From: a virus
Length of the DNA stretch: 19,129 bases
UHGV virus genome: UHGV-0124847
Direction: 5' to 3' (one strand)
Positions 1-19,129 of the stretch are shown in pieces. The notes beneath the pieces were generated by a model that was given only the letters and a program-made list of their open reading frames with translations, was not told where the DNA came from and did no database searches. The stretch's first letter is position 1; every line of letters starts with the position of its first letter. The position numbers and the translations under genes are program-made.

Positions 1-49
1 TACCAGATGTGTACCAAACCATTATTTTTGAGCGTACCAAATATTATTT

Positions 50-1400: not shown

Positions 1401-1410
1401 CTTAATTCTC

Positions 1411-1598: not shown

Positions 1599-1698
1599 TT
1601 ATCATCTCCATAAAACAAAACTCGCCGTAGCGAGTTCAGATAAAAGAAATCCCCTCGAGTGCGAGGATTGTTATTCACCTTTAACGGCAAGTTGCAGG

Positions 1699-2738: not shown

Positions 2739-2741
2739 GTG

Positions 2742-2891: not shown

Positions 2892-2892
2892 A

Positions 2893-3591: not shown

Positions 3592-3592
3592 G

Positions 3593-4432: not shown

Positions 4433-4917
4433 TGGTTGCCTCCTTTGCGAAGCTGGTCGGCGAACAAACGTACACCAGACGCTTCACTGCGTAGAAACTT
4501 AACGGCATCATCAAAACCACCTCGTTCTGCGTCGTCTGCTCCGTTGTCGAGGTTATCTGCGTACATCTCTACCCCCTGCGCCCGTACTTCAGCCAGGAAA
4601 GCATCAGTGGTTGGCGTTTCAGGTATCTGTCTCCTCATCCGTTCTATTGCATGATTGAACCCGAAGTCTTCCGCGAGAGATACGTCATCCATATTGTCAT
4701 TGTCATCCTCAATATCCCGTGATTCTGGAATTGCAGACTTTATTCCCGCATTCTCCGCTGCCAGCGCCGCGCACTTGGCCTCCGCTTCAGCAAATTTACG
4801 CACCAGATATTCAGCGTTTGTTTCGTTAACCTTTAAATCACTTGGGATGCATTTACCTTTCAGAAATCCATCCATCTCAATTAGTGTCATTTGTTTCATT
4901 TCTTCCCACTCCGCCAC
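4429..4917 (-). CDS. Hypothetical acidic phage protein (162 aa)
   Basis: ORF in operon orientation, strongly acidic (D/E-rich), in the ea region. Confidence 0.5.
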
Positions 4918-5093
4918 ATCGCATTCAGATATTTGTTTTGATTCACTGATGGAAAAGAATTTCTCTTAAGCAATTCCTCTCTCGATGGCATTGGCTTTAC
5001 GCGCTGGCGAATAATCATTTCTGCCGGAAGAATGCCGGGATTGTATGCAAGTCCTCTCATGGTAAATTCCTCAGTCATTACTGATAGCGCCAT
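4896..5093 (-). CDS. Hypothetical small protein (about 66 aa from the internal Met)
   Basis: Track ORF 4896..5210 overlaps ORF 5071..5385 in another frame. The internal Met ([10 protein letters not shown]) gives a short overlap consistent with operon packing. Confidence 0.3.
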
Positions 5094-5385
5094 AGCGTGA
5101 GCGGTAATTACGCAGGCGCGGGTCAATTTCAGGGAAGTGGGTATATGTGGCTTTGCGGAATGGTCGGATTGATGTCTGGTAAATTCGCTCGCGTTCTTCT
5201 TTCTCTGCAAGCCATATACAGTGGCGAAATTCCTTTTCCTTTTTCGTTTCCTGCGGTAGAGACATTATCCGATCGTAGTTTTTTCTGAATTTATCCAGCA
5301 CCTCCGATACGGAATTGCCGGAACAGCGGCGCGGGTCATCCGCACCATACAGAGGCGCTGGCATAATGGAATCCTTATTTTGCAA
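5071..5385 (-). CDS. Hypothetical phage protein (104 aa)
   Basis: ORF immediately downstream of the SSB-like gene (2-nt gap), same strand. Confidence 0.5.
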
Positions 5386-5387
5386 AT

Positions 5388-5771
5388 CTAGAAGGGAATT
5401 GAATCGTCGTATTCAGGATGATTTTGATGATTGCTACTTTGCTGCTGTTGGCTGTTTCCTGAAGTTGCAAATCCAATCTTTGCATTCAGTAATTCAAGAT
5501 TGATTGATTGACCATTTTGCCCCTGATAAACATCAACTCTGATGTTTTCTCCGGTAATTTCTACAATTCCACCTTCAACAAGAACACTACGGTAGTAATC
5601 CGCTTGCGCTCCCGGCTTGGCAAATACAACGGCGCTGTAGTTTGTCCATTCTTTCTTTTTTGTCTGGCGATCGTAATACTGAACGCCAGCACGGATGTTG
5701 AATCCGATATTTTCCCCGGCCTGAAACTCTCTTACGGGCTTGTTTAGTCTTACAGTAATCGAATGTGCCAT
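5388..5771 (-). CDS. SSB-like single-strand DNA-binding protein with acidic C-terminal tail
   Basis: 127-aa ORF directly downstream of erf. Gln/Ser-rich linker then a C-terminal ...PEYDDSIPF, resembling the DDDIPF tail of bacterial SSB. The N-terminal OB-fold assignment is inferred. Confidence 0.55.
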   Translation of the reverse strand: MAHSITVRLNKPVREFQAGENIGFNIRAGVQYYDRQTKKKEWTNYSAVVFAKPGAQADYYRSVLVEGGIVEITGENIRVDVYQGQNGQSINLELLNAKIGFATSGNSQQQQSSNHQNHPEYDDSIPF

Positions 5772-6376
5772 TAAGCAGCCGCTCCTTCTAATTCATTTCG
5801 TCTGATGTTGTAAACGTCCTGCGCTTTGTGCTGCTCCGGTGTGCCTTCGAGCATCTTCCACGCTTTGGCGAACGCCTGTTTAAGCTCTTCCACGTTGTTT
5901 TTCTGCATTGCTGCGTCAGTGAATGCTTTTAGAACCTGTTCAGGTGTAGGTGATGGTTTTGATTGCTTTGCTGCTGCGTTCTGCTGATGTTTATGCTCGT
6001 CTGTATCTGCATCTTTCGCATCATCAATGCCGAATAAACCATTGAGGCAATACTTGCGTGCATAAGAGCTTGTAGCTCCCGTAACTTGTGCAGAATCCAT
6101 TCCCTTCTTGCTTTCTTCCTCTCGTGCAAGAGCGGTTGCCGTATGACTGTTTTCGCCATCGGTAATAGTTGCCGTGGCTTTCACGTAATACCGATCACCA
6201 ATCAACACAACTTCATCGCTGATTGATAAAAACAGGCCATTCAGTAACGGCTTAACACCCTCAAGAATGTCTTCGCAGCTTCTGTATTTATATTTGCCGA
6301 ATGAGTTGTATTGATTCTTTGGCGCGTTCAGATTCTCCTGAATAGCTGCCAGTCTTGCGTAAAATTCTTTGCTCAT
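5771..6376 (-). CDS. erf: Erf-family single-strand annealing recombinase
   Basis: The N-terminal region (MSKEFYARLAAIQENLNAPKNQYNSFGKYKYRSCEDILEGVKP...) matches the P22 Erf family. The track ORF begins at an upstream TTG (6406); the ATG at 6376 is preferred because the upstream 56-aa ORF ends at 6387. Confidence 0.85.
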   Translation of the reverse strand: MSKEFYARLAAIQENLNAPKNQYNSFGKYKYRSCEDILEGVKPLLNGLFLSISDEVVLIGDRYYVKATATITDGENSHTATALAREEESKKGMDSAQVTGATSSYARKYCLNGLFGIDDAKDADTDEHKHQQNAAAKQSKPSPTPEQVLKAFTDAAMQKNNVEELKQAFAKAWKMLEGTPEQHKAQDVYNIRRNELEGAAA

Positions 6377-6386
6377 ATGATTGTTC

Positions 6387-6557
6387 TCAGAATGGACATG
6401 GCCCAAGGAAATAACGCTGATTTAATACTTCGACTCGGGACAAGTTAAGGCATACCCGCATTCCTTCGCGGTCGCCATTATGGCGATACCAGAGAGCTTT
6501 CTGCGTGTACATGCGTCTCTGTAACTTGCTCTCCTTCACTGTGGTTGCAAGTGACAT
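6387..6557 (-). CDS. Hypothetical small protein (56 aa, MSLATTVKESKLQRRMYTQKALWYRHNGDREGMRVCLNLSRVEVLNQRYFLGPCPF)
   Basis: Hand-translated. Strong AAGGAG Shine-Dalgarno 6 nt upstream; in-frame stop just upstream of the ATG; lies between the kil-like gene and erf. Confidence 0.45.
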   Translation of the reverse strand: MSLATTVKESKLQRRMYTQKALWYRHNGDREGMRVCLNLSRVEVLNQRYFLGPCPF

Positions 6558-6632
6558 GAATATCTCCTTCGTTACCGATTAAATCTTTCATCTGACGAAT
6601 GAATTCTTCGTCTGACCAGTTATCTGTAAAAC

Positions 6633-6785
6633 TCATTTCCTGCGATACCACGGAAGGTTGATAGCTGATTTCATCGCTTTATTTGCTTCAAGCCACATTT
6701 TTGAATCACCAATAAATCTGGCTATTACTGCTTTGTTCTGTGCAGCACGAAGCATCTGGTGATTGATGGCTATTTCATTGCGCAT
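6633..6785 (-). CDS. kil: Kil-like small protein (50 aa)
   Basis: Hand-translated ORF (MRNEIAINHQMLRAAQNKAVIARFIGDSKMWLEANKAMKSAINLPWYRRK) immediately downstream of cIII, as in lambda. The IAxFIGDxKM motif resembles my recollection of lambda Kil; not verified. Confidence 0.45.
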   Translation of the reverse strand: MRNEIAINHQMLRAAQNKAVIARFIGDSKMWLEANKAMKSAINLPWYRRK

Positions 6786-6901
6786 AATAAGACCTCAACT
6801 CTTTTCCATCCGTCACGTAATTTACGGGTGATTCGTTCAAGTAAAGATTCATTTAGTTGGAAGGCACCCATGCGAGCGCCTCCCGCGATTGCGTAAATCA
6901 T
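6770..6901 (-). CDS. cIII: CIII-like protein (protease-inhibitor regulator of CII stability)
   Basis: Hand-translated 43-aa ORF (MIYAIAGGARMGAFQLNESLLERITRKLRDGWKRVEVLLCAMK). The core ESLLERITRKLRDGWKR matches the conserved lambda CIII region ESLLDRITRKLRDGWKR. Confidence 0.8.
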   Translation of the reverse strand: MIYAIAGGARMGAFQLNESLLERITRKLRDGWKRVEVLLCAMK

Positions 6902-6925
6902 GGGTGGTTCCTTATGTTGGTTTTA

Positions 6926-7894
6926 TTAGTAGGTTATTTTTGTTGCGAATACTTCGCCTTTTACGATGGCTGTTATGATATTTTTAGCAACATCTTCTGA
7001 TGCACCAACCTTGATAAGGTCAGTAAGTATTTTGTTATTTACTTCTTTCCGGTGAGCTTTATCCTTTGCTCTACGCTCTTCTTCGTCCTTGATTCTTTTT
7101 TCTTCTGCTATTCTGGCTTGCTCTTTTGCTTCAGCCTCGCGACGGATTCGTTCAGCCTCCTCCTGTGCTTTTCTGCGTTCTGCTTCAATTGCCGCCTGCT
7201 TTTCTCTTTCAGCTCGTTCTGCTGCCTCTTTTGCTTCGCGCTGTGCTCGTTGCTCGGCTTCAATGCGTTCACGCTCTGCACGTTCCGCTGCGGCCTTAGC
7301 TTCTGCTTCTCGCCTTGCTGCTGCTTCAATTTCGGCTTTTGCCTTTGCTTCGGCTTCTGCTCTGGCTTTCTCTTCAGCTTCTCTTTTTAAGCGTTCTTCA
7401 TGCTCTCGCTTTTCCTGCTCCGCTTTGAGTCTTGCCTCTTCTCTTTGGCGGTCAAATTCGCGATCCATCAAAATCGCTATTTCATGGTCAGACTCAATTT
7501 GCTTTGCGAGAGCTTCAGCTGCTGCCTTAGCTTCTTCTTCGGCTTTAATCCGTGCCTGTTCCTCCTCATAATCAGTAAGAGGCTGGCGCGCCTTGGCTTT
7601 CAGTTCATCAAGGCGATCGCGCACTGTCTTGCGGTTGGCATCAATTAGCTTTGGAATTTCCTTCAGTTCAGCAACAAGGTCTTTGCCAAGACCATCGAGA
7701 TATGTTTTCGTCTGCGCAACTTTATACGCCAGAGAAGCGATCTCCTTTCTGCCCTTTGCCGTTGTGATATCAGGCACAAAGGACATAACTTCACGTTCAA
7801 CCTTTTGAAGGATTTCTTCAATCTGGTCGGCAGACTGAAATACAGTCATTGCATTTGCTTTTTCAATAACAACTAAATCTGTTACTTCACTCAT
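6926..7894 (-). CDS. Phage coiled-coil protein with a long E/A/K/R-rich low-complexity central region
   Basis: 322-aa ORF with a GGAGG Shine-Dalgarno upstream. Structured N- and C-terminal regions flank about 150 aa of near-periodic EAKAAAERAERE-type sequence, which is visibly periodic at nucleotide level. Confidence 0.7.
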   Translation of the reverse strand: MSEVTDLVVIEKANAMTVFQSADQIEEILQKVEREVMSFVPDITTAKGRKEIASLAYKVAQTKTYLDGLGKDLVAELKEIPKLIDANRKTVRDRLDELKAKARQPLTDYEEEQARIKAEEEAKAAAEALAKQIESDHEIAILMDREFDRQREEARLKAEQEKREHEERLKREAEEKARAEAEAKAKAEIEAAARREAEAKAAAERAERERIEAEQRAQREAKEAAERAEREKQAAIEAERRKAQEEAERIRREAEAKEQARIAEEKRIKDEEERRAKDKAHRKEVNNKILTDLIKVGASEDVAKNIITAIVKGEVFATKITY

Positions 7895-7906
7895 ATATCC
7901 TCCGTC

Positions 7907-7932
7907 AAAAAATTGCCCTCACACTGGAGGGC
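7907..7932 (-). terminator. Intrinsic terminator (minus strand), tL-like
   Basis: GCCCTC-cagtgt-GAGGGC hairpin followed on the minus strand by AATTTTTTG, 13 nt upstream of the coiled-coil gene start. Confidence 0.5.
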
Positions 7933-8025
7933 AAAGAAGATTTCCAATAATCAGAACAAGTCGGCTCCTGTTTAGTTACGAGCGACATTGCTCACATAGC
8001 AGACTCGCAAATCTGCTATAGGTGC

Positions 8026-8184
8026 TTATTCGCATCGCATGACAACATCAAATTTTTCGAGATTACTTTGTCGCAACAATCCCTCTTCTACGCGGTCAGC
8101 TTTTCTATAATTATCAAATTCGAAATGTTTAATTACTTCTTTCGTTTCTCGCTCTATAACTTCAACGATGTATTTCTTATTCAT
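8026..8184 (-). CDS. Hypothetical small protein (52 aa, MNKKYIVEVIERETKEVIKHFEFDNYRKADRVEEGLLRQSNLEKFDVVMRCE)
   Basis: Hand-translated. Its ATG overlaps the stop of the upstream ORF (TAATG); same strand. Confidence 0.4.
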   Translation of the reverse strand: MNKKYIVEVIERETKEVIKHFEFDNYRKADRVEEGLLRQSNLEKFDVVMRCE

Positions 8185-8453
8185 TACTCATCACCTATGG
8201 CTTTTTTGATAGCTTCGCGAGCCTTATTAACAGCTCCATACCATTCTGGATATGTTGTCGTTGTTCTATTTTCGGATTGCTTAAGTAATAACTGAAGTGC
8301 TTCAAGTAAATCCGGTGCAGCCATAGCTAATCTTCCATTTGCTACGGCCTCTTCTGTTTCTTTACCGGATAGGGCCATTCCCGGGTGTGAAAATAAAATT
8401 AAGCCTGCAAAATTGGCTTCTCGCCAATTTTTCCTAGTACCTTTAAATTCCAT
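8184..8453 (-). CDS. Hypothetical phage protein (89 aa)
   Basis: ORF in the early-left operon downstream of N, preceded by a terminator hairpin. Confidence 0.5.
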   Translation of the reverse strand: MEFKGTRKNWREANFAGLILFSHPGMALSGKETEEAVANGRLAMAAPDLLEALQLLLKQSENRTTTTYPEWYGAVNKAREAIKKAIGDE

Positions 8454-8472
8454 GTTAGCCTCTGTTGTTTAT

Positions 8473-8506
8473 GCCAAAAATAAAGGCCACCATCAGGCAG
8501 CCTTTT
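8473..8506 (-). terminator. Intrinsic terminator (minus strand)
   Basis: Minus-strand hairpin AAAGGCUGCC-UGAU-GGUGGCCUUU (two G.U wobbles) followed by AUUUUUGG; lies between two small ORFs. Confidence 0.5.
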
Positions 8507-8744
8507 TGTAAATGTTGCAGGTATCAAGTAAGTAATTAGATGGAGCGCCATAAATTATGAATTCATCGTTTGTCGGGTCCATCTCCATCTCTTGGCCTAT
8601 TGCCATTCTTGCGTCAGTGTCATCAGAGGCGAAGCATAAAACAGCCCACGCACCCATTGTTTTAAAAAGAACTGCAATTGGCTGTGGTTTTACTGAATTT
8701 GCGTTAGCGCGAAAATCATAAATCGCACTTTCATGAAATTCCAT
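8493..8744 (-). CDS. Hypothetical phage protein (83 aa)
   Basis: First ORF downstream of N on the same strand (8-nt gap). Confidence 0.5.
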   Translation of the reverse strand: MEFHESAIYDFRANANSVKPQPIAVLFKTMGAWAVLCFASDDTDARMAIGQEMEMDPTNDEFIIYGAPSNYLLDTCNIYKKAA

Positions 8745-8752
8745 ATATCACC

Positions 8753-9052
8753 TCAAATAAGTGGTTTGCTGCCTAATTTCATTTTCTGGCGACCAACACA
8801 AGTCACACCCATTTCACTGCGTGGCTTGCGGTAGTAAATACGATTCTGTTTACTCTCGACTTCTTCTGTCTTCTTGCAGCGAAGGCTTCCGAGTGATGCT
8901 GCTTTATCTGCTCTGACGCAACCAGAGAGCTTTAGCGCAATCTTTCGCGCCAGTCGCTGCTCTTGCATTGCCTGTTCACGTTGAGCCTGTCTGCGTGCTC
9001 TGCGGCGATTTCTGGCGTTATCGTCAGCCAGATATGTAATGACTACTGCCAT
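8753..9052 (-). CDS. N: N-type transcription antitermination protein
   Basis: 99-aa ORF with an N-terminal arginine-rich motif (NARNRRRARRQAQREQ). C-terminus (YYRKPRSEMGVTCVGRQKMKLGSKPLI) parallels the lambda N C-terminus (WYSKPGERGITCSGRQKIKGKSIPLI). GGAGG Shine-Dalgarno; nutL upstream. Confidence 0.85.
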   Translation of the reverse strand: MAVVITYLADDNARNRRRARRQAQREQAMQEQRLARKIALKLSGCVRADKAASLGSLRCKKTEEVESKQNRIYYRKPRSEMGVTCVGRQKMKLGSKPLI

Positions 9053-9159
9053 GTTGACCTCCGATGATTGACTTTGGCGGTGACGCGCCGGGTGCTTATC
9101 TTCCGGTTGCTGTCGTGCAGCTGCACTTCACGTCACCCCAAAGCCAACTACTCTTTGGT

Positions 9160-9200
9160 TCCCGCATTTCGGCGGGACAATCCCATCAATGTTAAAGAGC
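9160..9200 (-). promoter_or_regulatory. nutL (boxA GCTCTTTAAC plus boxB hairpin)
   Basis: Minus-strand read: GCTCTTTAACA, a 13-nt spacer, then the hairpin TCCCGC-CGAAAU-GCGGGA. The same boxA and boxB core recur on the plus strand after cro (nutR). Confidence 0.7.
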
Positions 9201-9246
9201 CTGCCAATCTGTTCCGTTTGGCTACCAGCGTCCTGCTGATGGCTAA

Positions 9247-9333
9247 AGAATACTGTAGGTATTTTATTGTGTAAATACCCAAGGTATTTATTTTTGGTGA
9301 AATAATGATAAGCAAATGAATACAAAGGATATT
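9247..9333 (-). promoter_or_regulatory. pL promoter with OL operator sites
   Basis: Minus strand: -35 TTTACA (plus coords 9270..9275), 17-bp spacer, -10 TATTCT (9247..9252). Operator-like dyads AATAC-N5-GTATT at 9249..9263 and 9274..9288, and a degenerate one at 9319..9333. Confidence 0.55.
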
Positions 9334-9419
9334 TATTTTTTCGGTGTCTGCTTGTTCAGTGCTTTTTATGCGGGATATGTGAAGTGGATCCCGATAGCTA
9401 TTGCTGCCGGGATTATGAG

Positions 9420-9809
9420 TTAGTCAGCGAAGGTTAAGACGAGAATTACCTTAATGATGTCTGCTACAACAGACACGGCCATAGATAAACCAAAGACGAT
9501 CCAAGCCATAGAGATGTCTTCACTACCATCGTATAGAGTTCCGTAATCACTGGTGTAAGGCGTAAATGTCGCGCCTTGATACAACAGGTATAAGCTTGAA
9601 CCATAGAGGATAAATGCAGATATCCCTTGTATTGCTATGATCACTAGAATCATGAAACGAGCTGATCTATGCGCCCAAGCCTGGCTTATTTTTTCTGATA
9701 GAGATTTCGCAATAAAAGCATGCGCTAAGCCGTAAATTGTCGAGATTGCCAACATCCCAAAAAAGCTTGCTATAGCGGTTCCAACCATAATCGCCCCTTG
9801 CGTGATCAA
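9420..9809 (-). CDS. Small integral membrane protein (129 aa, three predicted TM helices) co-transcribed with cI
   Basis: ORF start overlaps the cI stop (ATGA-type overlap). Three long hydrophobic segments. Occupies the position of rexA/rexB in lambda; no similarity to RexB in my reading. Confidence 0.65.
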   Translation of the reverse strand: MITQGAIMVGTAIASFFGMLAISTIYGLAHAFIAKSLSEKISQAWAHRSARFMILVIIAIQGISAFILYGSSLYLLYQGATFTPYTSDYGTLYDGSEDISMAWIVFGLSMAVSVVADIIKVILVLTFAD

Positions 9810-10522
9810 ACCAGCCTTAGTTTTGTCTCAATTGCAACGCCTATAATCTTGCAGTTTCCATTGATTGGCACGAGAGGCCATGCAGGATTAAGTCCCTTGA
9901 GGTATTTATTTCCGCCGTCGATTATCAGCTTCTTGAATGTTGCTTCGTTAGAGTCAGAAAGTTTTGCTATGACCAAGCTGCCGTTGATCGCCTCCCTTCC
10001 GGTATCGAAAAGAACGAATGTTCCCTCTGGAATGCTTAACCCAACCGGTGCCGTCATTGAATCACCTTCCACTTTAAGCCAAAACGCATTACCTTGAATA
10101 TGCGCGTCAGACTCAAGCCAAACATCTATGTCTTTAATGGTGTATGGTTCGCATGCTTCACACCACGAGCCAGCCTGGATACTGCTTAACACCGGATACC
10201 TCTTTCCTGCTCTGTATTCCCCTGCATACCTTACGTTGGCATCGCTCTTAAGGCTTTCTGCCTGTTCTGCAACCTTGGCAGCAATTGACTGGCTAAAATC
10301 AGCAATTGAGACTTGCAACAATCGTGCAAAACCAGATGCAACCTCAACGTTTAGCGCGTTTCTGCCATTAAGATAATGCCCTACCGCTCCTTGGGTGATA
10401 CCCAGTTCATCAGCGATTGAGTATTGGGTTATTCCCAATTCTTTCTTTTTTGACTCATACAAAGCCTTAAGCCGCTTAGCGTCTTCGAGCTGTTCTGTCG
10501 TCAGTGATTTTTTATTTTCCAT
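9806..10522 (-). CDS. cI: CI-type prophage repressor (HTH plus LexA-like S24 autocleavage domain)
   Basis: 238-aa ORF. N-terminal HTH (LGITQYSIADELGITQGAVGHYLNG) follows the lambda CI pattern; C-terminal S24 peptidase motifs (GDSM...FKKL). Divergent from cro across the operator region. Confidence 0.9.
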   Translation of the reverse strand: MENKKSLTTEQLEDAKRLKALYESKKKELGITQYSIADELGITQGAVGHYLNGRNALNVEVASGFARLLQVSIADFSQSIAAKVAEQAESLKSDANVRYAGEYRAGKRYPVLSSIQAGSWCEACEPYTIKDIDVWLESDAHIQGNAFWLKVEGDSMTAPVGLSIPEGTFVLFDTGREAINGSLVIAKLSDSNEATFKKLIIDGGNKYLKGLNPAWPLVPINGNCKIIGVAIETKLRLV

Positions 10523-10528
10523 AGCTTA

Positions 10529-10599
10529 ATTCTAATAGCTAAGGTACTTAAACTAAAAATACCCTGAGTATTGATTGTTTTGAATACCTGTAGTATTCT
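10529..10599. promoter_or_regulatory. OR operator region with divergent pRM and pR promoters
   Basis: Three 15-bp dyads AATAC-N5-GTATT at 10534..10548, 10558..10572 and 10583..10597 (24-25 bp centre spacing). pR: -35 TTGATT 10571..10576 and -10 TATTCT 10594..10599. pRM on minus: -10 TAGAAT (10529..10534) ending 6 nt before the cI ATG, which implies a leaderless cI mRNA. Confidence 0.6.
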
Positions 10600-10628
10600 T
10601 TATTCATGGTTAATAACGGAGAGTGCAT

Positions 10629-10823
10629 ATGATTCGAATGACACTTGCCGATTACGCCAAAATCCATGGACAGGCTAAAGCAGCCAGTGACTTTGGTGTA
10701 ATCCAGTGCGCTATCAGCAAGGCCATTCTGGCAGGCCGTAACATCATGGTTACGGTAAAGCCTGATGGCAGTGTGATTGGAGAGGAAGTTCGTCCTTTCC
10801 CAAGCAACAAGAAAAACAAATAG
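10629..10823 (+). CDS. cro: Cro repressor
   Basis: The protein parallels lambda Cro throughout ([29 protein letters not shown]...PDGSV..EEV.PFPSNKK). Start placed at the ATG 7 nt after GGAGAG; the track ORF begins two codons earlier at GTG. Confidence 0.85.
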
Positions 10824-10829
10824 TAACAC

Positions 10830-10875
10830 CGCTCTTTAACAGTCATGGTCCTCATTCCCGCCGAAATGCGGGAAT
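10830..10875 (+). promoter_or_regulatory. nutR (boxA CGCTCTTTAAC plus boxB hairpin)
   Basis: boxA directly after the cro stop; boxB is ATTCCCGC-CGAAAU-GCGGGAAT at 10854..10875. Core identical to nutL. Confidence 0.7.
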
Positions 10876-10931
10876 ACAACGCGCATAAGTTGATGCGCAT
10901 AACTTCTTATTAGTTAAGGAAATACTTACAT

Positions 10932-11210
10932 ATGCAACTTACAAGTACTCGCAAGAAAGCGAATGCAATTACAAGCAACATCATGAATCGAATTGCTGTA
11001 CGTGGTCAGCGAAAGGTTGCCGACGCGTTAGGGATTAATGAATCGCAAATTTCGCGATGGAAAGACAGCTTTATCCCAAAGATGGCCATGCTTCTGGCTG
11101 TTCTTGAATGGGGTGTTGAAGACGAGGAGTTGGCGGAACTGGCTAAGAAAGTAGCCAGAATGCTGACAAAAGAAAAAGCCCCGAAGAACGGCGAATTCTT
11201 CGAGGCCTGA
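10932..11210 (+). CDS. cII: CII transcriptional activator
   Basis: 92-aa ORF matching lambda CII across the HTH and tetramerisation region (KSQISRWK...IPK.SMLLAVLEWGV). Confidence 0.9.
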   Translation: MQLTSTRKKANAITSNIMNRIAVRGQRKVADALGINESQISRWKDSFIPKMAMLLAVLEWGVEDEELAELAKKVARMLTKEKAPKNGEFFEA

Positions 11211-11244
11211 TGTAGAAAGACTGGATCAATCCACAGGAGTAATT

Positions 11245-11406
11245 ATGACAAAACGTCGTAAGAAATACCAGGAAAAAGAAGAGATTCGACACCCTGATTC
11301 ACCTGAGGGATTAGTGGTAGCCGCAGCAAATAACAGGGCGTTCGCAGAGCGCCTTGTTGGTGTTTACAGACTAGCCAAAGCAGGAGTGAAACATGGGCGT
11401 CGTTAA
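11245..11406 (+). CDS. Hypothetical small basic protein (53 aa, [53 protein letters not shown])
   Basis: Hand-translated. AGGAG Shine-Dalgarno 5 nt upstream; its 3' end overlaps the start of the O-like gene. Confidence 0.4.
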   Translation: MTKRRKKYQEKEEIRHPDSPEGLVVAAANNRAFAERLVGVYRLAKAGVKHGRR

Positions 11407-12214
11407 GTTAGCTGATTACAGGCCTCAACTGGAGGTCGTGGAGCATCGCGTGGCAGATACCGAAGATGGTTTCATGCGCGTTGCTAACGAGATTACCGAC
11501 GGTCTGCTGATGGCTGATTTAACCGTCCGGCAGTTGAAGGTGATGCTCGCTATCATGCGCAAGACATACGGATTCAATAAGCCGATGGATCGACTCACAA
11601 ACACGCAGATAGCAGCCATGACAGGTATTCATCACACTCATGTTTGCGCTGCCAAGCGCCAGCTTATTGAGCGTAAATTCCTCATTGCTGATGGCGTGAA
11701 AATCGGAGTGAACAAGGTGGTTTCGCAGTGGATTAGCCAGGACAGCTTAACATTAGCTAAAACAGCTAATAAAACATTAGCCAAGTCGGCTAATGGGTAT
11801 AAGCCAAGTCAGCTAAACACAAAAGACAATATACAAAAGACAATAAATACAAATACCCCCTTACCCCCTAACGGGGGTGGCGATGGGCAGGTTAAACCTG
11901 AACGTCGCAAGGCGGAACGAATCGACTACGAATCCTTCCTGAACGCCTACAACACCGAAGTCGGTGACAGACTGCCACACGCTGTTGCGGTCAACGAGAA
12001 ACGCAAACGCCGCCTGAAGAAAATCATCCCGCAACTGAAAACGCCAAACGTGGACGGTTTCAGAGCGTATGTCAGGGCGTTTGTGCATCAGGCCAAGCCG
12101 TTTTACTTCGGAGACAACGACACGGGCTGGACGGCTGATTTTGATTACCTGCTGAGAGAAGACTCGTTAACGGGAGTTCGGGAAGGGAAGTTTGCAGACA
12201 GGGGGATTGCATGA
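11393..12214 (+). CDS. O: Replication initiator (phage O-like, replisome-organizer N-terminal domain)
   Basis: 273-aa ORF. N-terminal region ([55 protein letters not shown]) is typical of phage replication protein O N-terminal DNA-binding domains. The coding sequence contains an iteron array. Confidence 0.85.
11733..11880. other. Putative replication origin inside the initiator gene: dyad iterons, A-rich tract, GC palindrome
   Basis: Repeated about 17-bp dyads: TTAGCT-aaaac-AGCTAA (11753..11769), TTAGCC-aagtc-GGCTAA (11777..11793), taAGCC-aagtc-AGCTAA (11800..11816) at 23-24 bp spacing. Then an A-rich stretch (11817..11860) and CCCCCttaccccctaacGGGGG. Confidence 0.6.
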
Positions 12215-13587
12215 GACAGGATATCGAAGCGAGCGTTATCGGTGGCCTGCTGATTGGTGGATTAACTCCAACTGCCAGCGACGTTCTGGCAACGCTGGAG
12301 CCGGAAGCGTTTTCAATTCCGCTCTACAGGAAAGCCTTCGAGGTTATCCGCAAGCAGGCGAGAAACAGAAACCTAATCGATGCGCTGATGGTTGCCGAGG
12401 CGTGCGGAGAGGAGCATTTCACCTCAATCCTGATGACCAGCAAAAACTGCCCGAGTGCCGCAAACCTGAAGGGATATGCCGGAATGGTCGCGGATAACTA
12501 TCACCGCCGTCTGGTGCTGGAAATCATGGATGAAATGCGTGAACCAATTCAGAGCGGAACCATCGACGTATCGAGTCAGGCGATGGATGAACTTGTAAAG
12601 CGTCTTTCAGTCATCAGAAAGCCACGTGACGAGGTAAAACCTGTACGGTTAGGGGAAATCATCACCGACTACACTGACACGCTTGACAGGCGTCTGAGGA
12701 ACGGAGAAGAGTCAGATACCCTGAAGACCGGAATCGAAGAACTTGATGCCATCACCGGAGGGATGAACGCAGAAGACCTGGTGATTATCGCCGCTCGTCC
12801 TGGTATGGGGAAAACCGAACTGGCGCTGAAGATTGCCGAAGGTGTGGCAAGCCGCGTTATTCCTGGTTCTGACGTCCGGCGCGGGGTATTGATTTTCTCA
12901 ATGGAAATGAGCGCATTGCAGATTGCAGAGCGAAGCATTGCCAACGCCGGGAGGATGTCGGTTAGCGTACTGCGAAATCCTGCATCGATGGATGACGAGG
13001 GCTGGGCACGTGTTGCTAACGGCATGAGTCAGCTTGCAGATTTGGATGTATGGGTAGTCGATGCTTCGCGGTTATCGGTCGAAGAAATACGCTCAATCGC
13101 AGAACGGCATAAGCAGGAAAATCCAAACCTGTCACTCATCATGGCGGATTATCTTGGCCTGATTGAGAAGCCGAAAGCAGACCGCAACGACCTCGCAATT
13201 GCTCACATCTCCAGAAGCCTGAAGGCGATGGCGAAAGACCTGAAAACACCGGTTATCTCCCTGAGTCAGCTTTCGCGCGATGTTGAGAAGCGACCAAACA
13301 AACGCCCGACAAACGCAGATTTGCGTGATTCAGGAAGCATTGAACAGGACGCAGACTCAATCATCATGCTCTATCGGGAAGCGGTATATGATGAGAACAG
13401 TAGCGCCGCGCCATTTGCTGAAATCATCGTGACGAAAAACCGTTTTGGCTCGCTTGGTACAGTTTACCAGCGGTTCTGCAACGGACACTTTGTTGCATGT
13501 GACCAGGATGAAGCCAGACAGATTTGCACAGCATCAAATGCACCTGCTGCGCGTGGCAGACGATATGCACAAGGGGCTGACGTATGA
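12211..13587 (+). CDS. Replicative DNA helicase, DnaB family
   Basis: 458-aa ORF with Walker A ([15 protein letters not shown]), Walker B-like ([10 protein letters not shown]) and a DnaB C-terminal region ([17 protein letters not shown]...[20 protein letters not shown]). Start overlaps the O stop. Confidence 0.9.
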
Positions 13588-13664
13588 CCATCTACATCAC
13601 TGAGCTAATAACAGGCCTGCTGGTAATCGCAGGCCTTTTTATTTGGGGGAGAGGGAAGTCATGA
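13584..13664 (+). CDS. Possible 26-aa hydrophobic micropeptide ([26 protein letters not shown])
   Basis: ATG overlaps the helicase stop (GTATGA) and its stop overlaps the ninB ATG (TCATGA). Single hydrophobic helix. The same span forms a terminator hairpin, so coding status is uncertain. Confidence 0.3.
13613..13645 (+). terminator. Intrinsic terminator-like hairpin between the helicase and ninB
   Basis: AGGCCTGC-tggtaatc-GCAGGCCT perfect 8-bp stem followed by TTTTTATTT. Confidence 0.5.
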
Positions 13665-14101
13665 AAAAACTAACCTTTGAAATTCGATCTCCAGCACATC
13701 AGAAAAACGCTATTCACGCAGTACAGCAAATTCTTCCAGACCCAACCAAACCAATCGTAGTAACCATTCAGGAACGCAACCGCAGCTTAGACCAAAACCG
13801 AAAGCTTTGGGCTTGCCTTGGTGACGTCTCTCGTCAGGTTGAATGGCATGGTCGCTGGCTGGATGCAGAAAGCTGGAAGTGTGTGTTTACCGCAGCATTA
13901 AAGCAGCAGGACGTTGTTCCTAACCTTGCCGGGAATGGCTTTGTGGTAATAGGCCAGTCAACCAGCAGGATGCGTGTAAGCGAATTTGCGGAGCTATTAG
14001 AGCTTATACAGGCATTCGGTACAGAGCGTGGCGTTAAGTGGTCAGACGAAGCGCGACTGGCTCTGGAGTGGAAAGCGAGATGGGGAGACAGGGCTGCATG
14101 A
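13661..14101 (+). CDS. ninB: NinB (Orf-family recombination mediator)
   Basis: The protein from [68 protein letters not shown] matches lambda NinB as I recall it. The track ORF starts at an upstream TTG; the ATG at 13661 is preferred. Confidence 0.9.
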   Translation: MKKLTFEIRSPAHQKNAIHAVQQILPDPTKPIVVTIQERNRSLDQNRKLWACLGDVSRQVEWHGRWLDAESWKCVFTAALKQQDVVPNLAGNGFVVIGQSTSRMRVSEFAELLELIQAFGTERGVKWSDEARLALEWKARWGDRAA

Positions 14102-14970
14102 TAAATGTCGTTAGTTTCTCCGGTGGCAGGACGTCAGCATATTTGCTCTGGCTAATGGAGCAAAAGCGTCGGGCAGGTAAAGACGTGCATTACGTTTTCA
14201 TGGATACAGGTTGTGAACATCCAATGACATATCGGTTTGTCAGGGAAGTTGTGAAGTTCTGGGATATACCGCTCACCGTATTGCAGGTTGATATCAACCC
14301 GGAGCTTGGACAGCCAAATGGTTATACGGTATGGGAACCAAAGGATATTCAGACGCGAATGCCTGTTCTGAAGCCATTTATCGATATGGTAAAGAAATAT
14401 GGCACTCCATACGTCGGCGGCGCGTTCTGCACTGACAGATTAAAACTCGTTCCCTTCACCAAATACTGTAATGACCATTTCGGGCGAGGGAATTACACCA
14501 CGTGGATTGGCATCAGAGCTGATGAACCGAAGCGGCTAAAGCCAAAGCCTGGAATCAGATATCTTGCTGAACTGTCAGACTTTGAGAAGGAAGATATCCT
14601 CGCATGGTGGAAGCAACAACCATTCGATTTGCAAATACCGGAACATCTCGGTAACTGCATATTCTGCATTAAAAAATCAACGCAAAAAATCGGACTTGCC
14701 TGCAAAGATGAGGAGGGATTGCAGCGTGTTTTTAATGAGGTCATCACGGGATCCCATGTGCGTGACGGACATCGGGAAACGCCAAAGGAGATTATGTACC
14801 GAGGAAGAATGTCGCTGGACGGTATCGCGAAAATGTATTCAGAAAATGATTATCAAGCCCTGTATCAGGACATGGTACGAGCTAAAAGATTCGATACCGG
14901 CTCTTGTTCTGAGTCATGCGAAATATTTGGAGGGCAGCTTGATTTCGACTTCGGGAGGGAAGCTGCATGA
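14098..14970 (+). CDS. ninC: NinC-like protein, PAPS-reductase/PP-loop ATPase superfamily
   Basis: 290 aa from the ATG overlapping the ninB stop. N-terminal PP-loop motif ([12 protein letters not shown]) typical of PAPS reductase-like enzymes. Position after ninB and the 290-aa length match lambda ninC. Confidence 0.75.
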
Positions 14971-15218
14971 TGCGATGTTATCGGTGCGGTGAATGCAAAG
15001 AAGATAACCGCTTCCGACCAAATCAACCTTACTGGAATCGATGGTGTCTCCGGTGTGAAAGAACACCAACAGGGGTGTTACCACTACCGCAGGAAAAGGA
15101 GGACGTGTGGCGAGACAGCGACGAAGTTTCACCGACATCATCTGTGAAAACTGCAAATACCTTCCAACGAAACGCTCCAGAAATAAACGCAAGCCAATCC
15201 CAAAAGAATCTGACGTAA
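14967..15218 (+). CDS. NinD-like small Cys-rich protein (true 3' end uncertain)
   Basis: ORF starts on the ninC stop (ATGATG). CxxC pairs (CYRCGEC, CLRC) suggest a zinc ribbon. The last 113 nt overlap ninE in another frame, so the real protein may be shorter. Confidence 0.45.
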
Positions 15219-15283
15219 AAACCTTCAACTACACGGCTCACCTGTGGGATATCCGGTGGCTAAGACATCGTGCGAGGAAATGA
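15107..15283 (+). CDS. ninE: NinE-like protein
   Basis: Hand-translated 58-aa ORF from GTG after AAGGAGG ([58 protein letters not shown]); resembles lambda NinE as I recall it. Stop overlaps the next start (ATGA). Confidence 0.65.
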
Positions 15284-15627
15284 CAATGGATTATTCACAG
15301 TTAAGTGATTTTGAAATTAACAGAATGGTAGGAGACATAATTTTTAAAGGACTTTGGGCATGTAAACCGGAAACGTCAGGGAATAACACCAACAAATGGT
15401 ATTACGGAAATGCTGATACAACTTTTGAGCCATTAAATCATTTGCCTGACTACTGCAATGATCCGAGCGCTTCATGGCCGATTATTGAGAAATACAGGAT
15501 TTCTATCTTAGACCAGTTAACTGAATGGTGTGTGGATGCAAAAGGCGTAAGCCCAATATTTGATACCAGACCTCTCCGCGCCGCCATGATTGTCTTTCTC
15601 CTGATGCAGGAGGCCAATAATGCTTAG
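15280..15627 (+). CDS. Hypothetical nin-region protein (115 aa from MTMDYSQ)
   Basis: ORF with ATGA overlap to the ninE stop. The track ORF extends upstream to a GTG at 15244, but that start lies inside ninE. Confidence 0.55.
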
Positions 15628-15796
15628 CCCATCCCAATCCCTTCAATACCAGAAAGAAAGCGTCGAGCGGGCTTTAACGTGCGCTAACTGCGGTCAGAAG
15701 CTGCATGTGCTGGAAGTTCACATGTGTGAGCACTGCTGCGCAGAACTGATGAGCGATCCGAATAGCTCAATGCACGAGGAAGAAGACGATGAATGA
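15620..15796 (+). CDS. ninF: NinF-like small Cys-rich protein
   Basis: Hand-translated 58-aa ORF ([58 protein letters not shown]) with two CxxC motifs and an acidic tail; resembles lambda NinF as I recall it. Confidence 0.6.
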
Positions 15797-16511
15797 GTTA
15801 ATAAATGGCAATGCCATCAAAATGACAAGCATTGAAATCGCTGAGTTGGTTGGTAAGCGTCATGACAATGTGAAACGTACCATCGAAACGCTGGCTAAAA
15901 ATGGTGTTATCCGGCTTCCTCAAATTGAGGTTTCCGAAAGAATCAATAACTTAGGGTTCAATGTTCAGTACGAGCATTACGTTTTCGAAGGCGAACAAGG
16001 TAAGCGAGACAGTATTGTCGTTGTTGCCCAGTTGTCGCCGGAATTCACCGCTCGCCTTGTTGACCGCTGGCGAGAGCTTGAAGAAGCTGCGGTTAATATC
16101 CCCAAAACGCTACCAGAAGCGTTGCGCCTTGCTGCTGATCTTGCTGAGCAGAAAATGCAACTGGAAAACCAGCTCGCAATTGCCGCACCTAAAGTTGAGT
16201 TTGCCGATCGCGTTGGCGAGGCCAGCGGAATTTTGATTGGAAACTTTGCAAAGGTTGTCGGTATTGGTCCAAACAAACTGTTTGCGTGGATGCGCGATCA
16301 CAAAATCCTTATTGCTTCAGGTTCCCGGCGCAATGTGCCAATGCAGGAATATATGGATCGCGGCTATTTCACAGTGAAAGAAACAGCGGTCAACACAAAT
16401 CACGGAATACAGATATCGTTCACCACAAAAATCACCGGGCGTGGTCAACAGTGGCTGACCAGAAAGCTGCTCGATAACGGAATGCTGAAAGTAACAGGTG
16501 AGGCTGCTTAA
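15789..16511 (+). CDS. Phage antirepressor-like regulator (Rha-type N-terminal domain plus KilA-C/ANT-like C-terminal domain)
   Basis: 240-aa ORF. N-terminus (IKMTSIEIAELVGKRHDNVKRTIETL) fits Rha/ORF6N-type phage regulatory domains; the C-terminal half resembles KilA-C antirepressor domains. Inserted between ninF and the ybcO-like gene. Confidence 0.7.
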   Translation: MNELINGNAIKMTSIEIAELVGKRHDNVKRTIETLAKNGVIRLPQIEVSERINNLGFNVQYEHYVFEGEQGKRDSIVVVAQLSPEFTARLVDRWRELEEAAVNIPKTLPEALRLAADLAEQKMQLENQLAIAAPKVEFADRVGEASGILIGNFAKVVGIGPNKLFAWMRDHKILIASGSRRNVPMQEYMDRGYFTVKETAVNTNHGIQISFTTKITGRGQQWLTRKLLDNGMLKVTGEAA

Positions 16512-16801
16512 TGGCTAATCTACGCAAAGAAGCACGCGGCAGAGAATGCCAGGTACGTATTTACGGCGTATGCAATGGCAACCCTGAAACTACAGTTCTG
16601 GCACATTATCGGATGGCTGGAATTTGCGGAACGGGAATGAAGCCTGACGACCTGATCGGCGCATGGGCTTGTAGCGCGTGTCACGATGAAATCGACCGAC
16701 GCACCCATAATCTCGACAACAAAGACGCCAGACTTTACCACCTCGAAGGCGTGATCAGGACGCAGGCGATACTGCTGAAGGAGGGGAAGATTAAGTCATG
16801 A
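16511..16801 (+). CDS. YbcO-like (DUF1364) putative zinc-binding nuclease
   Basis: 96-aa ORF with Cys/His clusters (CQVRIYGVCNG, CSACHDEID), immediately upstream of rusA as in the DLP12 prophage arrangement. Confidence 0.7.
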   Translation: MANLRKEARGRECQVRIYGVCNGNPETTVLAHYRMAGICGTGMKPDDLIGAWACSACHDEIDRRTHNLDNKDARLYHLEGVIRTQAILLKEGKIKS

Positions 16802-17160
16802 ACGAATATCAGTTTGTGCTTCCATACCCGCCGTCGGTGAACACCTACTGGCGAAGACGGGGAAGCCAATACTACATCAGCGATAAAGGCCAGAAATACC
16901 GAAAAGACGTTCAGCAAATCATCCGCCAACTCAAGTTAGACATTTTCACCAAATCACGACTCCGCATCAAAGTCATCGCAGACGTTCCAGACTCCCGCCG
17001 CCGCGACCTCGACAACATCCTGAAAGGTTTACTCGATTCCCTTATCCACGCCGGATTTGCGGAAGACGACGAGCAATTCGATGACATTCGCGTAATTCGT
17101 GGTGTGAAAGTACCAGGCGGACGGCTTGGAATAAAAATCACCGAACTGGAGAACGCATGA
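16798..17160 (+). CDS. rusA: RusA Holliday-junction resolvase
   Basis: 120-aa ORF with the conserved RusA core (DVPDSRRRDLDNILKGLLDSLIHAGF...DD). Confidence 0.9.
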   Translation: MNEYQFVLPYPPSVNTYWRRRGSQYYISDKGQKYRKDVQQIIRQLKLDIFTKSRLRIKVIADVPDSRRRDLDNILKGLLDSLIHAGFAEDDEQFDDIRVIRGVKVPGGRLGIKITELENA

Positions 17161-17345
17161 ACGCCACAATTCAAACGATACCAGAGCTTCTTATCCAGAC
17201 ACGAGGCAATCAGACCGAAGTGGCAAGGATGCTTTCCTGCGCAAGAGGAACAGTGCTCAAGTACAACCGAGACAGCAAAGGCGAGCGTCACGCAATAGTT
17301 AACGGCGTCCTGATGGTCAAACAGGGCAAGAGGGGAAGACGATGA
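17157..17345 (+). CDS. ninH: NinH-like small HTH protein
   Basis: 62-aa ORF whose YGNQTEVARxLxCxRGTVxKY...HAIVNxVLMV region parallels lambda NinH. Confidence 0.75.
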   Translation: MNATIQTIPELLIQTRGNQTEVARMLSCARGTVLKYNRDSKGERHAIVNGVLMVKQGKRGRR

Positions 17346-17965
17346 GACTCGAAAGCGTAGCTAAATTTCATTCGCCAAAAAGCCCAATGATGAGCGACTC
17401 ACCACGGGCTACGGCTTCTGACTCTCTTTCCGGTACTGATGTGATGGCTGCTATGGGGATGGCGCAATCACAAGCCGGATTCGGTATGGCTGCATTCTGT
17501 GGTAAGCACGAACTCAGCCAGAACGACAAACAAAAGGCTATCAACTATCTGAAGCAATTTGCACACAAGGTATCGGGGAAATACCGTGGTGTGGCAAAGC
17601 TCGAAGGAAATACTAAGGCAAAGGTACTGCAAGTGCTCGCAACATTCGCTTATGCGGATTATTGCCGTAGTGCCGCTACGCCGGGCGCAAGATGCAGAGA
17701 TTGCCACGGTACAGGCCGTGCGGTTGATATAGCCAAAACAGAGCAGTGGGGGAGAGTTGTCGAGAAAGAGTGCGGAAGATGCAAAGGCGTCGGCTATTCA
17801 AGGATGCCAGCAAGCGCAGCATATCGCGCTGTGACGATGCTAATCCCAAACCTTACTCAACCCACCTGGTCACGCACTGTTAAGCCGCTGTATGACGCTC
17901 TGGTGGTGCAATGCCACAAAGAAGAGTCAATCGCAGACAGCATTTTGAATACGGTCACACGTTAG
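17342..17965 (+). CDS. Q: Q late-gene antiterminator (lambda type)
   Basis: 207-aa ORF essentially colinear with lambda Q as I recall it (MRLESVAKFHSPKSPMMSDSPRATASDSLSGTDV...), including the Cys-rich zinc region (CRDCHGTGR...CGRCKGVGY). Confidence 0.9.
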   Translation: MRLESVAKFHSPKSPMMSDSPRATASDSLSGTDVMAAMGMAQSQAGFGMAAFCGKHELSQNDKQKAINYLKQFAHKVSGKYRGVAKLEGNTKAKVLQVLATFAYADYCRSAATPGARCRDCHGTGRAVDIAKTEQWGRVVEKECGRCKGVGYSRMPASAAYRAVTMLIPNLTQPTWSRTVKPLYDALVVQCHKEESIADSILNTVTR

Positions 17966-18007
17966 CAGCATGATTGCCACGGATGGCAACATATTAACGG
18001 CATGATA

Positions 18008-18036
18008 TTGACTTATTGAATAAAGTTGGGTAAATT
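18008..18036 (+). promoter_or_regulatory. pR' late promoter with the overlapping Q-binding (qut) region
   Basis: -35 TTGACT (18008..18013), 17-bp spacer, -10 TAAATT (18031..18036). Promoter region matches lambda pR' as I recall it. Confidence 0.7.
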
Positions 18037-18071
18037 TGACTCAACGATGGATAAATGCACTCGTTAAATAA

Positions 18072-18107
18072 AGCCCTGAGTTAATAGCTCGGGGCTTTTT
18101 GCGTTTT
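18072..18107 (+). terminator. Intrinsic terminator close to pR' (tR'-like)
   Basis: AGCCCTGAG-ttaatag-CTCGGGGCT (9-bp stem, one G.U) followed by TTTTTGCGTTTT, about 30-60 nt after the predicted pR' start. Confidence 0.65.
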
Positions 18108-18400
18108 AAGCACGGCCTTTCTGAAAGCACATCAAACCAAATACCAGACAGACAAAAATAATCACCTTATCCGCTGTGGCTACGGTGCGGTGTGCTTTGC
18201 ATAAAAGAAAACCAGCGCAATGGCTGGCTTCGTGAAAGCGGGTGGCAGGAGGTTGCACTAACAACCTCATGCCGTTTTGCCCGTGCATATCGGTCACGAA
18301 CAAATCTGATTACTAAACACAGTAGCCTGGATTTGTTCTATCAGTAATCGACCTTATTCCTAATTAAATAGAGCAAATCCCCTCAATGAAGGGGTAGAGC

Positions 18401-18604
18401 ATGTACCGTATGGACAAAATCAGAGAATGGTTCAGTTACAGCTTCGGAGGACTGACTGCGATGGGTGGCATTCTCTCCCTGAATGACTGGGCTGTCATCA
18501 TTGGTATTCTTTGTACTGTCGGCACATTTGGCATCAACTGGTACTACAAGCGCAAAGAGCGCGAGGACAGATTGAATGGCAATGTCACCGGCACTACGAA
18601 ATAG
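18401..18604 (+). CDS. S: Class II holin (pinholin-like) with dual-start motif
   Basis: 67-aa ORF with two hydrophobic segments and a charged C-terminus. Starts M-Y-R-M (Met1 and Met4 separated by a basic residue), the classic holin/antiholin dual-start arrangement. Followed by a SAR endolysin. Confidence 0.75.
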
Positions 18605-19079
18605 CGTAATAGCGGCGATAAGTGGCGGGGCTATTGCTATAGCATCTGTGTTAATCACTGGGCCAAGTGGTAACGATGGTCTGGAAGGTGTCAGCTACAT
18701 ACCATACAAAGATATTGTTGGTGTATGGACTGTATGTCACGGACATACCGGAAAAGACATCGTGCTCGGTAAAACGTATACCGAAGAAGAATGCAAAGCC
18801 CTCCTGAATAAAGACCTTGCCACGGTCGCCAGACAAATTAACCCGTACATCAAAGTCGATATACCGGAAACAACGCGCGGCGCTCTTTATTCGTTCGTCT
18901 ATAACGTGGGCGCAGGCAATTTCAGAACATCGACGCTTCTTCGCAAAATAAACCAGGGCGATATCAAAGGCGCATGTGATCAGCTACGGCGCTGGACATA
19001 CGCTGGCGGTAAGCAATGGAAAGGGCTGATGACTCGCCGTGAGATTGAGCGTGAAGTCTGTTTGTGGGGTCAGCAATGA
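18576..19079 (+). CDS. R: SAR endolysin (T4-lysozyme-like muramidase with N-terminal signal-anchor-release domain)
   Basis: 167-aa ORF. Weakly hydrophobic Gly/Ala-rich N-terminal segment ([23 protein letters not shown]) then the lysozyme catalytic region ([25 protein letters not shown], Glu-Asp-Thr pattern). Confidence 0.85.
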
Positions 19080-19129
19080 ACAGAGTAACCGCGATTATCT
19101 CCGCTTTGGTTATCTGCATCATCGTCTGC
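19076..19129 (+). CDS. Rz: Rz i-spanin, 5' end only (truncated by window edge)
   Basis: ATG overlaps the endolysin stop (ATGA). The 18 codons [18 protein letters not shown] match the lambda Rz N-terminal signal-anchor. Confidence 0.7.

Follow-up and report, generated by a model that had tools for sequence, protein, structure and literature searches.

A mosaic lysis cassette with an HP1-family dual-start holin and an R21-type SAR endolysin behind the lambdoid late leader of an Escherichia coli prophage

Introduction

Which holin and which endolysin stand behind the lambda-like late leader of this prophage, where do these genes join the surrounding lambda-type DNA, and what kind of hole would the holin make? 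The window, by which we mean the whole stretch of DNA analysed (19,129 nucleotides of the UHGV virus genome UHGV-0124847), ends in an interval, 18401-19129, that contains three overlapping + strand genes: a holin, an endolysin and the start of Rz. A preliminary description of this interval, made from the sequence alone, had proposed a pinholin and SAR endolysin on the phage 21 paradigm, joined to a lambda-like leader within a few bases of the holin start, with a lambda-like Rz resuming afterwards. Our analysis bears out this description, refines the assignment of the holin and adds further joints. As a whole, we find the region best explained, with a probability of roughly 0.78, as the promoter-proximal late operon of a lambdoid (P22/lambda-type) prophage carrying a three-step lysis cassette.

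Results

Late-operon setting of the lysis genes

The window (1-19129) represents the early half of a lambdoid prophage, with genes for an integrase (50-1228), an Erf recombinase (5771-6406), a LexA-type repressor (9806-10522), an O-like protein (11393-12214), a DnaB-like helicase (12211-13587), a PAPS-reductase-domain protein (14038-14970) and a KilAC antirepressor (15789-16511); RusA, NinH and Q are also encoded. Among complete E. coli genomes none covers at least 80% of the window, which indicates that this mix of common modules is absent from that collection, and an Rfam search of the window gave no match. The last 1230 bases of the window, starting at 17900, match a prophage in E. coli JBEHAAB-19-0176 at 100%, and show 97-98% identity with Klebsiella phage phiKp_30 and Salmonella phage Emek.

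The gene of the antiterminator that drives the late operon is of the lambda Q type (17342-17965, + strand; PF03589, E 3e-57), with a 3' end near-identical to that of lambda. It is followed on the same strand by a lambda-identical late promoter pR' (TTGACT-17-TAAATT, 18008-18036), located by a promoter scan and lambda alignment, by a qut site (18027-18056) transferred from the annotation of phage Emek (1099-1128 in locus L125, an offset of 16928 from the window), and by a strong Rho-independent terminator 3' of pR' (18070-18108), equivalent to tR', for which a scan found a 13-bp stem and a T run and which Emek also has annotated. In a sliding comparison, identity to lambda is at least 95% from 17900 to about 18055 and at background over 18056-18228, the segment within which the terminator lies. 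Here a short Emek/P22-type stretch takes the place of the longer 6S/tR'/orf-64 region of lambda, and a minus-strand terminator-like hairpin is found at 18231-18208, between pR'/qut and the leader. By homology with lambda, Q-modified RNA polymerase would start at pR', read through the 18070-18108 terminator and cross the leader into the lysis cassette.

A shared leader that ends just before the holin

The conserved lambdoid late leader occupies 18229-18383 (+ strand). It was identified by a search of phage records, and the annotation of CUS-3 labels it "bsq3; boundary sequence". Its 98% identity to lambda over 155 nt bears out the lambda-like leader proposed before. A search with the leader only returned 132 matching phage records, of which more than 100 contain the 155 nt with 95-99% identity. 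For lambda, HK022, HK97, Sf6 and related phages the match is confined to query positions 1-155 (window 18229-18383, 95-99% identity), and in the Salmonella phages that have this holin all 172 query bases match.

The joint between leader and holin lies between 18383 and 18384, where unbroken lambda-type identity stops, 17 nt before the first ATG, so that its placement next to the holin start was right. Past the joint the two versions are still alike (CAATGAAGGGGTAGAGCATG versus TATTGGGGGTAAGACATG), and the variant goes with the holin type. Seen along the DNA, lambda identity is at or close to 100% over 18229-18383, drops to background across the two lysis genes (18404-19075), and is high again from 19076. 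When the whole window was compared with complete E. coli genomes, related prophages were found to match up to 18383 or 18403 and to continue with lambda S and R. The presence of lambda S and R behind the same leader in related prophages is direct evidence that cassettes have been exchanged here. Conserved boundary sequences that guide module exchange are an established idea (PMC3233612), and lambdoid phages would swap lysis modules at the shared leader by homologous recombination; the cassette would thus be located here because the leader is a shared boundary sequence.

Two other readings of this boundary were rejected. The prophages matching to 18403 could have held a third cassette behind the same hairpin, but the genes found in them are lambda S and R, together with the lambda hairpin. 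The hairpin variant could have been part of the leader, given a CUS-3 BLAST match that ran to query position 168, but direct alignment gave a lambda-type hairpin in CUS-3. The leader also has a hairpin of its own at 18243-18283 (GGCAGGAGGT…ACCTCATGCC followed by GTTTTG), which forms a perfect 10-bp stem in lambda and has one mismatch-creating substitution in the window. In a related E. coli prophage (L127, 678-680), the lambda-type holin has GTG, not ATG, as its first (S107) start.

The holin belongs to the HP1 family

The holin gene (+ strand) has two ATG start codons, at 18401 and 18410, and its stop at 18602-18604. The long product, 67 aa from Met1 (MYRMDKIRE…; 18401-18604), is the predicted antiholin, and the short product, 64 aa from Met4 (18410-18604), is the predicted active holin; the short form is the RefSeq CDS in the identical E. 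coli locus, and its Met is conserved. Two uncharged runs, at residues 10-28 and 30-49, are followed by a charged C-terminus (KRKEREDR…), in agreement with the class II protein with two TMDs, 67 aa and an M-Y-R-M start that had been proposed.

With 75.1 bits against a cut-off of 28.8 (E 4.4e-21, profile 1-49 of 56), the holin is a member of Pfam PF16080 (Phage_holin_2_3, HP1 family): besides scoring above the gathering threshold it has the two hydrophobic segments and an adjoining endolysin gene that overlaps its 3' end, and its database homologues carry the name "HP1 family phage holin". The match to the S21 family PF04971 (Phage_holin_2_1) reached 19.5 bits, under the cut-off of 26 (E 0.001, residues 25-54 only). 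BLASTP against EssD, the S21-type holin of DLP12, was not significant (E 0.024 over 27 aa), and the holin matched no NCBIfam model and, in Pfam, not the lambda holin family. Holin and EssD both match phrog_20 over the same profile positions, and hhalign aligns them over their full length with E 9.2e-5 though with 59% probability only and 31% identity over 54 columns. They have in common an M-x-x-M-D-K N-terminus, a W-A-x-I-G motif at the start of TMD2 and an N-x-Y-[YF]-K-x-K-E motif at its end, and their weakly hydrophobic TMD1, whose composition would suit a SAR-like segment able to leave the membrane, has a mean Kyte-Doolittle value of 0.78 with 47% G/A/S/T in the holin versus 0.70 with 55% in EssD. 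On these comparisons we place the holin in the HP1 family; it is no orthologue of S21 and would be at most a remote relative of it.

We also came across a sub-family of HP1-type holins of about 89-92 aa, with an insert of about 25 residues between the TMDs and an M-T-R-M dual start (HK225, L133 1154-1432; L015-L036). One member of this insert-bearing sub-family, P0042, has precomputed Pfam matches to both PF16080 and PF04971.

An R21-type SAR endolysin and a lambda-like Rz

The next gene (18576-19079, + strand) overlaps the holin 3' end by 29 nt and encodes a SAR endolysin of 167 aa, a GH24 lysozyme of the R21/RrrD type. It matches Pfam PF00959 (E 8.7e-46) and resembles the solved structures 3HDE and 4ZPU (E about 1e-105), a score that, like that of the holin against Pfam, chance does not explain; it differs from RrrD (PDB 4ZPU) at 9 of 165 positions (about 95% identity) and from R21 (PDB 3HDE/3HDF) at 11 of 165 (about 93%). 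Six of its differences fall in the N-terminal SAR segment, which is still uncharged and Gly/Ala-rich. By hydropathy, composition and alignment to the R21 N-terminus, the SAR domain comprises residues 9-33 (18600-18674, + strand), a 25-residue uncharged run with 56% G/A/S/T that is preceded by R8. Residues 29-62 (counted from MAM…) are identical to those of R21 and RrrD and include the catalytic residues. The catalytic triad of R21 is E35, D44 and T50 (R21 numbering), and 3HDE and 3HDF are its tethered and released forms. The earlier reading of a T4-lysozyme-type enzyme with a Gly/Ala-rich SAR domain is thus well founded. From its about 93% identity to R21, the endolysin would be exported by Sec, tethered in the membrane and released upon depolarisation.

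That holin and endolysin are not lambda S and R had also been correctly seen. BLASTP of the endolysin against lambda R gave no match, and with no Pfam match of the holin to the lambda holin family and only background DNA identity across 18404-19075, we rejected lambda S/R homology of both proteins.

For the phage 21 side of the comparisons we used essD-rrrD-rzpD of DLP12 and the R21 sequences in PDB. DNA identity with DLP12 is about 95% from about 18622, just 3' of the holin stop, through the endolysin into Rz, which puts a joint between holin and endolysin, relative to DLP12, at about 18585-18621. Because the identity begins only there, the cassette is not that of phage 21: it combines an HP1-type holin with an R21-type endolysin and is itself mosaic relative to phage 21/DLP12. 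The breakpoints against lambda and the phage 21 type are thus at 18383/18384 and about 18585-18621, with lambda-like Rz from 19076; the joint at about 18585-18621 and the replacement of 18056-18228 relative to lambda come in addition to those of the preliminary description.

In-frame ATGs of the endolysin stand at both 18576 and 18582, of which RefSeq annotates 18582. A GAGGA at 18563-18567 is correctly spaced for the ATG at 18576 (MAMSP…), and this, not 18582, is probably the start. The first nine or so endolysin codons (MAMSP..RN), which lie within the holin 3' end, are kept where the remainder of the endolysin is only about 33% identical (18576-18621; L015, L017, L022-L024, L026, L029). Their retention indicates that the overlap travels with the holin, and that a joint just 3' of the holin stop is recurrent.

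Rz (i-spanin) is represented by its first 18 codons (19076-19129, + strand), cut by the window end. Aligned to lambda Rz, this start matches at 51 of 54 nt and 17 of 18 residues, as expected from the lambda-like N-terminus noted earlier, and its ATG at 19076 overlaps the endolysin stop (ATGA). In the identical E. coli locus (L001) Rz has 155 aa, shows 61% identity with its lambda counterpart and contains a lipoprotein ORF. There Rz (4177-4784) is lambda-like for the first 240 nt or so only and then divergent; RefSeq leaves out the embedded Rz1-like lipoprotein ORF (MRKLKMMLFGAILIMVAGC…) and lists, at 4632-4784, a hypothetical protein of 50 aa instead.

What kind of hole the holin would make

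As the holin is not an S21 orthologue, the term pinholin has to be justified from family and context rather than from near-identity, and on these grounds we regard the window holin as probably a pinholin. HP1 Hol, the namesake of the family and characterised by experiment as a pinholin, is reported to kill cells without lysis and without leakage of beta-galactosidase, and its partner is a SAR endolysin (PMC7312051). The small holes (about 2 nm) of S21-68 are heptameric and depolarise the membrane without releasing soluble endolysin (review, PMC9636201), and such holes have been suggested for HP1 Hol. The likeness to EssD in PHROG and in the hhalign comparison, although of low probability in the latter, agrees with this reading. 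As for context, we collected 40 loci from different species, 37 of them with a readable downstream gene, and in all 37 of these diverged loci the holin is followed by a GH24 lysozyme whose N-terminus has 18-25 uncharged, hydrophobic residues in a row; this pairing persists down to 28-35% identity between the lysozyme and the window endolysin. A secreted-type endolysin was also found in four of six distant phages (Bcep176, mEp010, HK225 and Pun_Y3), one record being ambiguous and one having a soluble lysozyme. The last case is APSE-7 (L130, 1310-2241), in which an HP1-type holin without dual start is followed by a lambda-family holin and by a soluble lysozyme without hydrophobic N-terminus. The extra lambda-type holin fits an HP1-type holin that is unable to release a soluble enzyme.

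The holin could instead be a canonical large-hole class II holin that is incidentally paired with a SAR endolysin needing only depolarisation. SAR endolysins are also known to work with canonical large-hole, non-pinholin holins, such as that serving Lyz of P1, so that the pairing alone is no proof of a pinholin. The S21 TMD2 carries a G-xxx-S-xxx-G zipper, which is not cleanly aligned with the holin, as hhalign places a gap in that stretch, and the S21-family match stays below threshold. Moreover, the HP1 prototype lacks a dual start and is reported to have a different activated topology (N-in/C-out), so the transfer of its mechanism is imperfect. We nevertheless consider a large-hole holin unlikely, given the killing by HP1 Hol without lysis or enzyme leakage (PMC7312051), a SAR-type lysozyme in 37/37 loci, and the fact that the one phage with a soluble lysozyme, APSE-7, has a lambda-type holin as well. 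The pinholin of the preliminary description is thus favoured by the HP1 family and the SAR-lysozyme context.

A conserved dual start behind a hairpin that pairs the Shine-Dalgarno region

The N-terminus of the window holin, M1-Y-R3-M4, has two Met starts with a basic residue between them. Among homologues the dual start takes the forms M-x-R-M, M-R-M, M-T-[RK]-M and M-K-M, and it is kept in Citrobacter, Raoultella, Yersinia, Photorhabdus, Serratia, Pectobacterium, Erwinia, Izhakiella, Kluyvera and others. The residue after Met1 varies (Y, Q, H, T, A, K or I) and the basic residue is written with different codons (CGT, CGC, CGA and AGA, or AAA for Lys). A basic residue that stays constant under differing codons points to selection on the translated residue before the second Met.

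Upstream of the starts, the transcript can fold into a hairpin resembling the lambda sdi element (CCCCT-CAATGA-AGGGG, 18379-18394, + strand; RNAfold -8.7 kcal/mol, z -1.95), whose 3' arm lies in the Shine-Dalgarno region, its AGGGG sitting 6 nt before the ATG at 18401. We folded each sequence separately against dinucleotide shuffles, with other gene starts as control set. All 34 unique upstream regions fold into a hairpin whose 3' arm contains the Shine-Dalgarno purines, although stem sequences differ by lineage; the mean z is -2.0, and 28 of the 34 lie below -1, compared with a mean of -0.13 and 16% below -1 at the starts of 80 other genes from these loci. From 13 upstream regions, MAFFT and RNAalifold derived no common structure, since the sequences of the hairpins do not align. 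The lambda sdi element and the S21 start region follow the same logic as the window hairpin, and DLP12 also has a hairpin. A four-codon mini-ORF (ATG AAG GGG TAG, 18386-18397) in the loop and 3' arm is probably incidental.

The Met1 form (67 aa) adds Met-Tyr-Arg and hence an extra positive charge; on the model of S21-71 and lambda S107, it is predicted to serve as an antiholin and so delay triggering. The predicted active holin is the Met4 form (64 aa), and the hairpin, by pairing part of the Shine-Dalgarno region, would set the ratio of the two starts. It is rather unlikely, in our judgement, that Met4 is the sole start and ATG-TAC-CGT an untranslated leader with an incidental likeness to a dual start. 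Such a reading would agree with RefSeq/PGAP, which calls the 64-aa product only, with some database homologues called from the second Met, and with the HP1 Hol, mEp010 and APSE-7 homologues, which have no dual start; yet both Mets and the basic residue are kept across genera while the neighbouring residue and the Arg codon vary, AGGGG stands 6 nt before the ATG at 18401, and the conserved Shine-Dalgarno hairpin mirrors lambda sdi.

The joint falls between the 5' arm of the hairpin (CCCCT) and its loop. We tentatively hypothesise that the joint lies inside a regulatory hairpin to which the leader gives CCCCT (18379-18383) and the holin module gives the loop, the 3' arm with the Shine-Dalgarno sequence and both starts. 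An element controlling the holin:antiholin ratio would then be rebuilt at each cassette swap, which could limit the lysis modules that can be exchanged, and the enterobacterial HP1-family holins may form a second group of dual-start pinholins that evolves independently, the HP1 prototype being reportedly without dual start.

Distribution of the cassette

The arrangement is already known: it is widespread, has been sequenced and annotated before, and cannot be called unusual or recent. The Salmonella phages PS119, ST104 and SPN9CC, as well as Oslo and others, have a gp13 that is 100% identical to the holin protein, and in PS34 the identity is 98.5%. A holin at least 99% identical is found in 31 phage records, and the gene in 84 of 5426 complete E. 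coli genomes; a scan of viral contigs gave 361 confirmed stretches encoding holin relatives, of which the 80 loci kept are 97-100% identical. The record of phage phiE125 already cites gp13 of PS119/PS34 as a "class II holin". The lambda-like flanks around an R21-like endolysin might suggest a recent and unusual lambda x phage 21 recombination in this prophage, but this is very improbable and is refuted by the distribution data: the same arrangement occurs in PS34, PS119, ST104, SE1, SPN9CC, Emek, a Klebsiella phage and the 84 E. coli genomes, the holin is not S21, and the region upstream of the DLP12 genes is unrelated to the lambda-type leader.

Discussion

Lysis in this prophage would proceed in three steps. 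After export, the SAR endolysin would be held tethered and inactive in the inner membrane; the holin would most likely form small holes and collapse the proton-motive force, upon which the endolysin would be released and activated; and Rz, with an Rz1 encoded beyond the window, would disrupt the outer membrane. Small holes, the antiholin and SAR release are ascribed to these proteins on the strength of their homologues.

The region is a textbook case of lambdoid modular exchange, in which one leader precedes non-homologous pairs of holin and endolysin and the joints fall at gene boundaries. Since it illustrates known module swapping, its importance beyond annotation is small. In annotation, the holin is best described as a class II holin of the HP1 family, probably a pinholin, that has two starts, and not as an S21 orthologue. 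Only mildly new is the comparative evidence for a conserved dual start and a hairpin pairing the Shine-Dalgarno sequence in the enterobacterial branch of the HP1 family, with the mosaic joint inside the hairpin; these dual starts and hairpins offer a ready comparative set for studies of lysis timing.

Comparison with known systems

The nearest relatives are the P22-like Salmonella phages PS119, PS34, ST104, SE1, SPN9CC and Emek (lysis genes 13-19-15), which share the leader, the hairpin variant, the 29-nt overlap and a SAR-type GH24 endolysin, with 91-98% DNA identity across the region. The window differs from them in being an E. coli prophage; in these phages the Q/pR'/terminator segment before 18229 varies, with many matches beginning at 18090 or 18228, and Emek, unlike the window, has a small ORF between endolysin and Rz. 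Diversity of lysis genes in this group has been described before, as the genome paper of ε34 noted that the holins of six P22-like Salmonella phages fall into three non-homologous types and their lysins also into three types (PMC2629481).

Phage 21 and DLP12 (S21-R21-Rz; EssD-RrrD-RzpD) share the endolysin, about 93-95% identical in protein to that of the window, and a holin of the same layout: about 70 aa long, it opens with an M-x-x-M-D-K dual start that includes a basic residue, has two TMDs, the first of them rich in Gly/Ala/Ser/Thr, and ends in a charged C-terminus. They differ in that this holin is only remotely similar, in the first nine or so endolysin codons and, for DLP12, in lacking a lambda-type leader. 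The hol-lys genes of Haemophilus phage HP1 likewise comprise a PF16080 holin gene that overlaps a SAR-endolysin gene, but HP1 Hol has 78 aa, no dual start, no known antiholin and, when activated, reportedly an N-in/C-out topology, and HP1 is a P2-like myovirus and not a lambdoid phage. Lambda, finally, has in common with the window the leader to 18383, a Shine-Dalgarno-pairing hairpin before the starts, two Mets parted by a basic residue and the Rz N-terminus, whereas its S is a three-TMD class I holin that makes micron-scale holes and its R a soluble transglycosylase, neither of them homologous to the window proteins.
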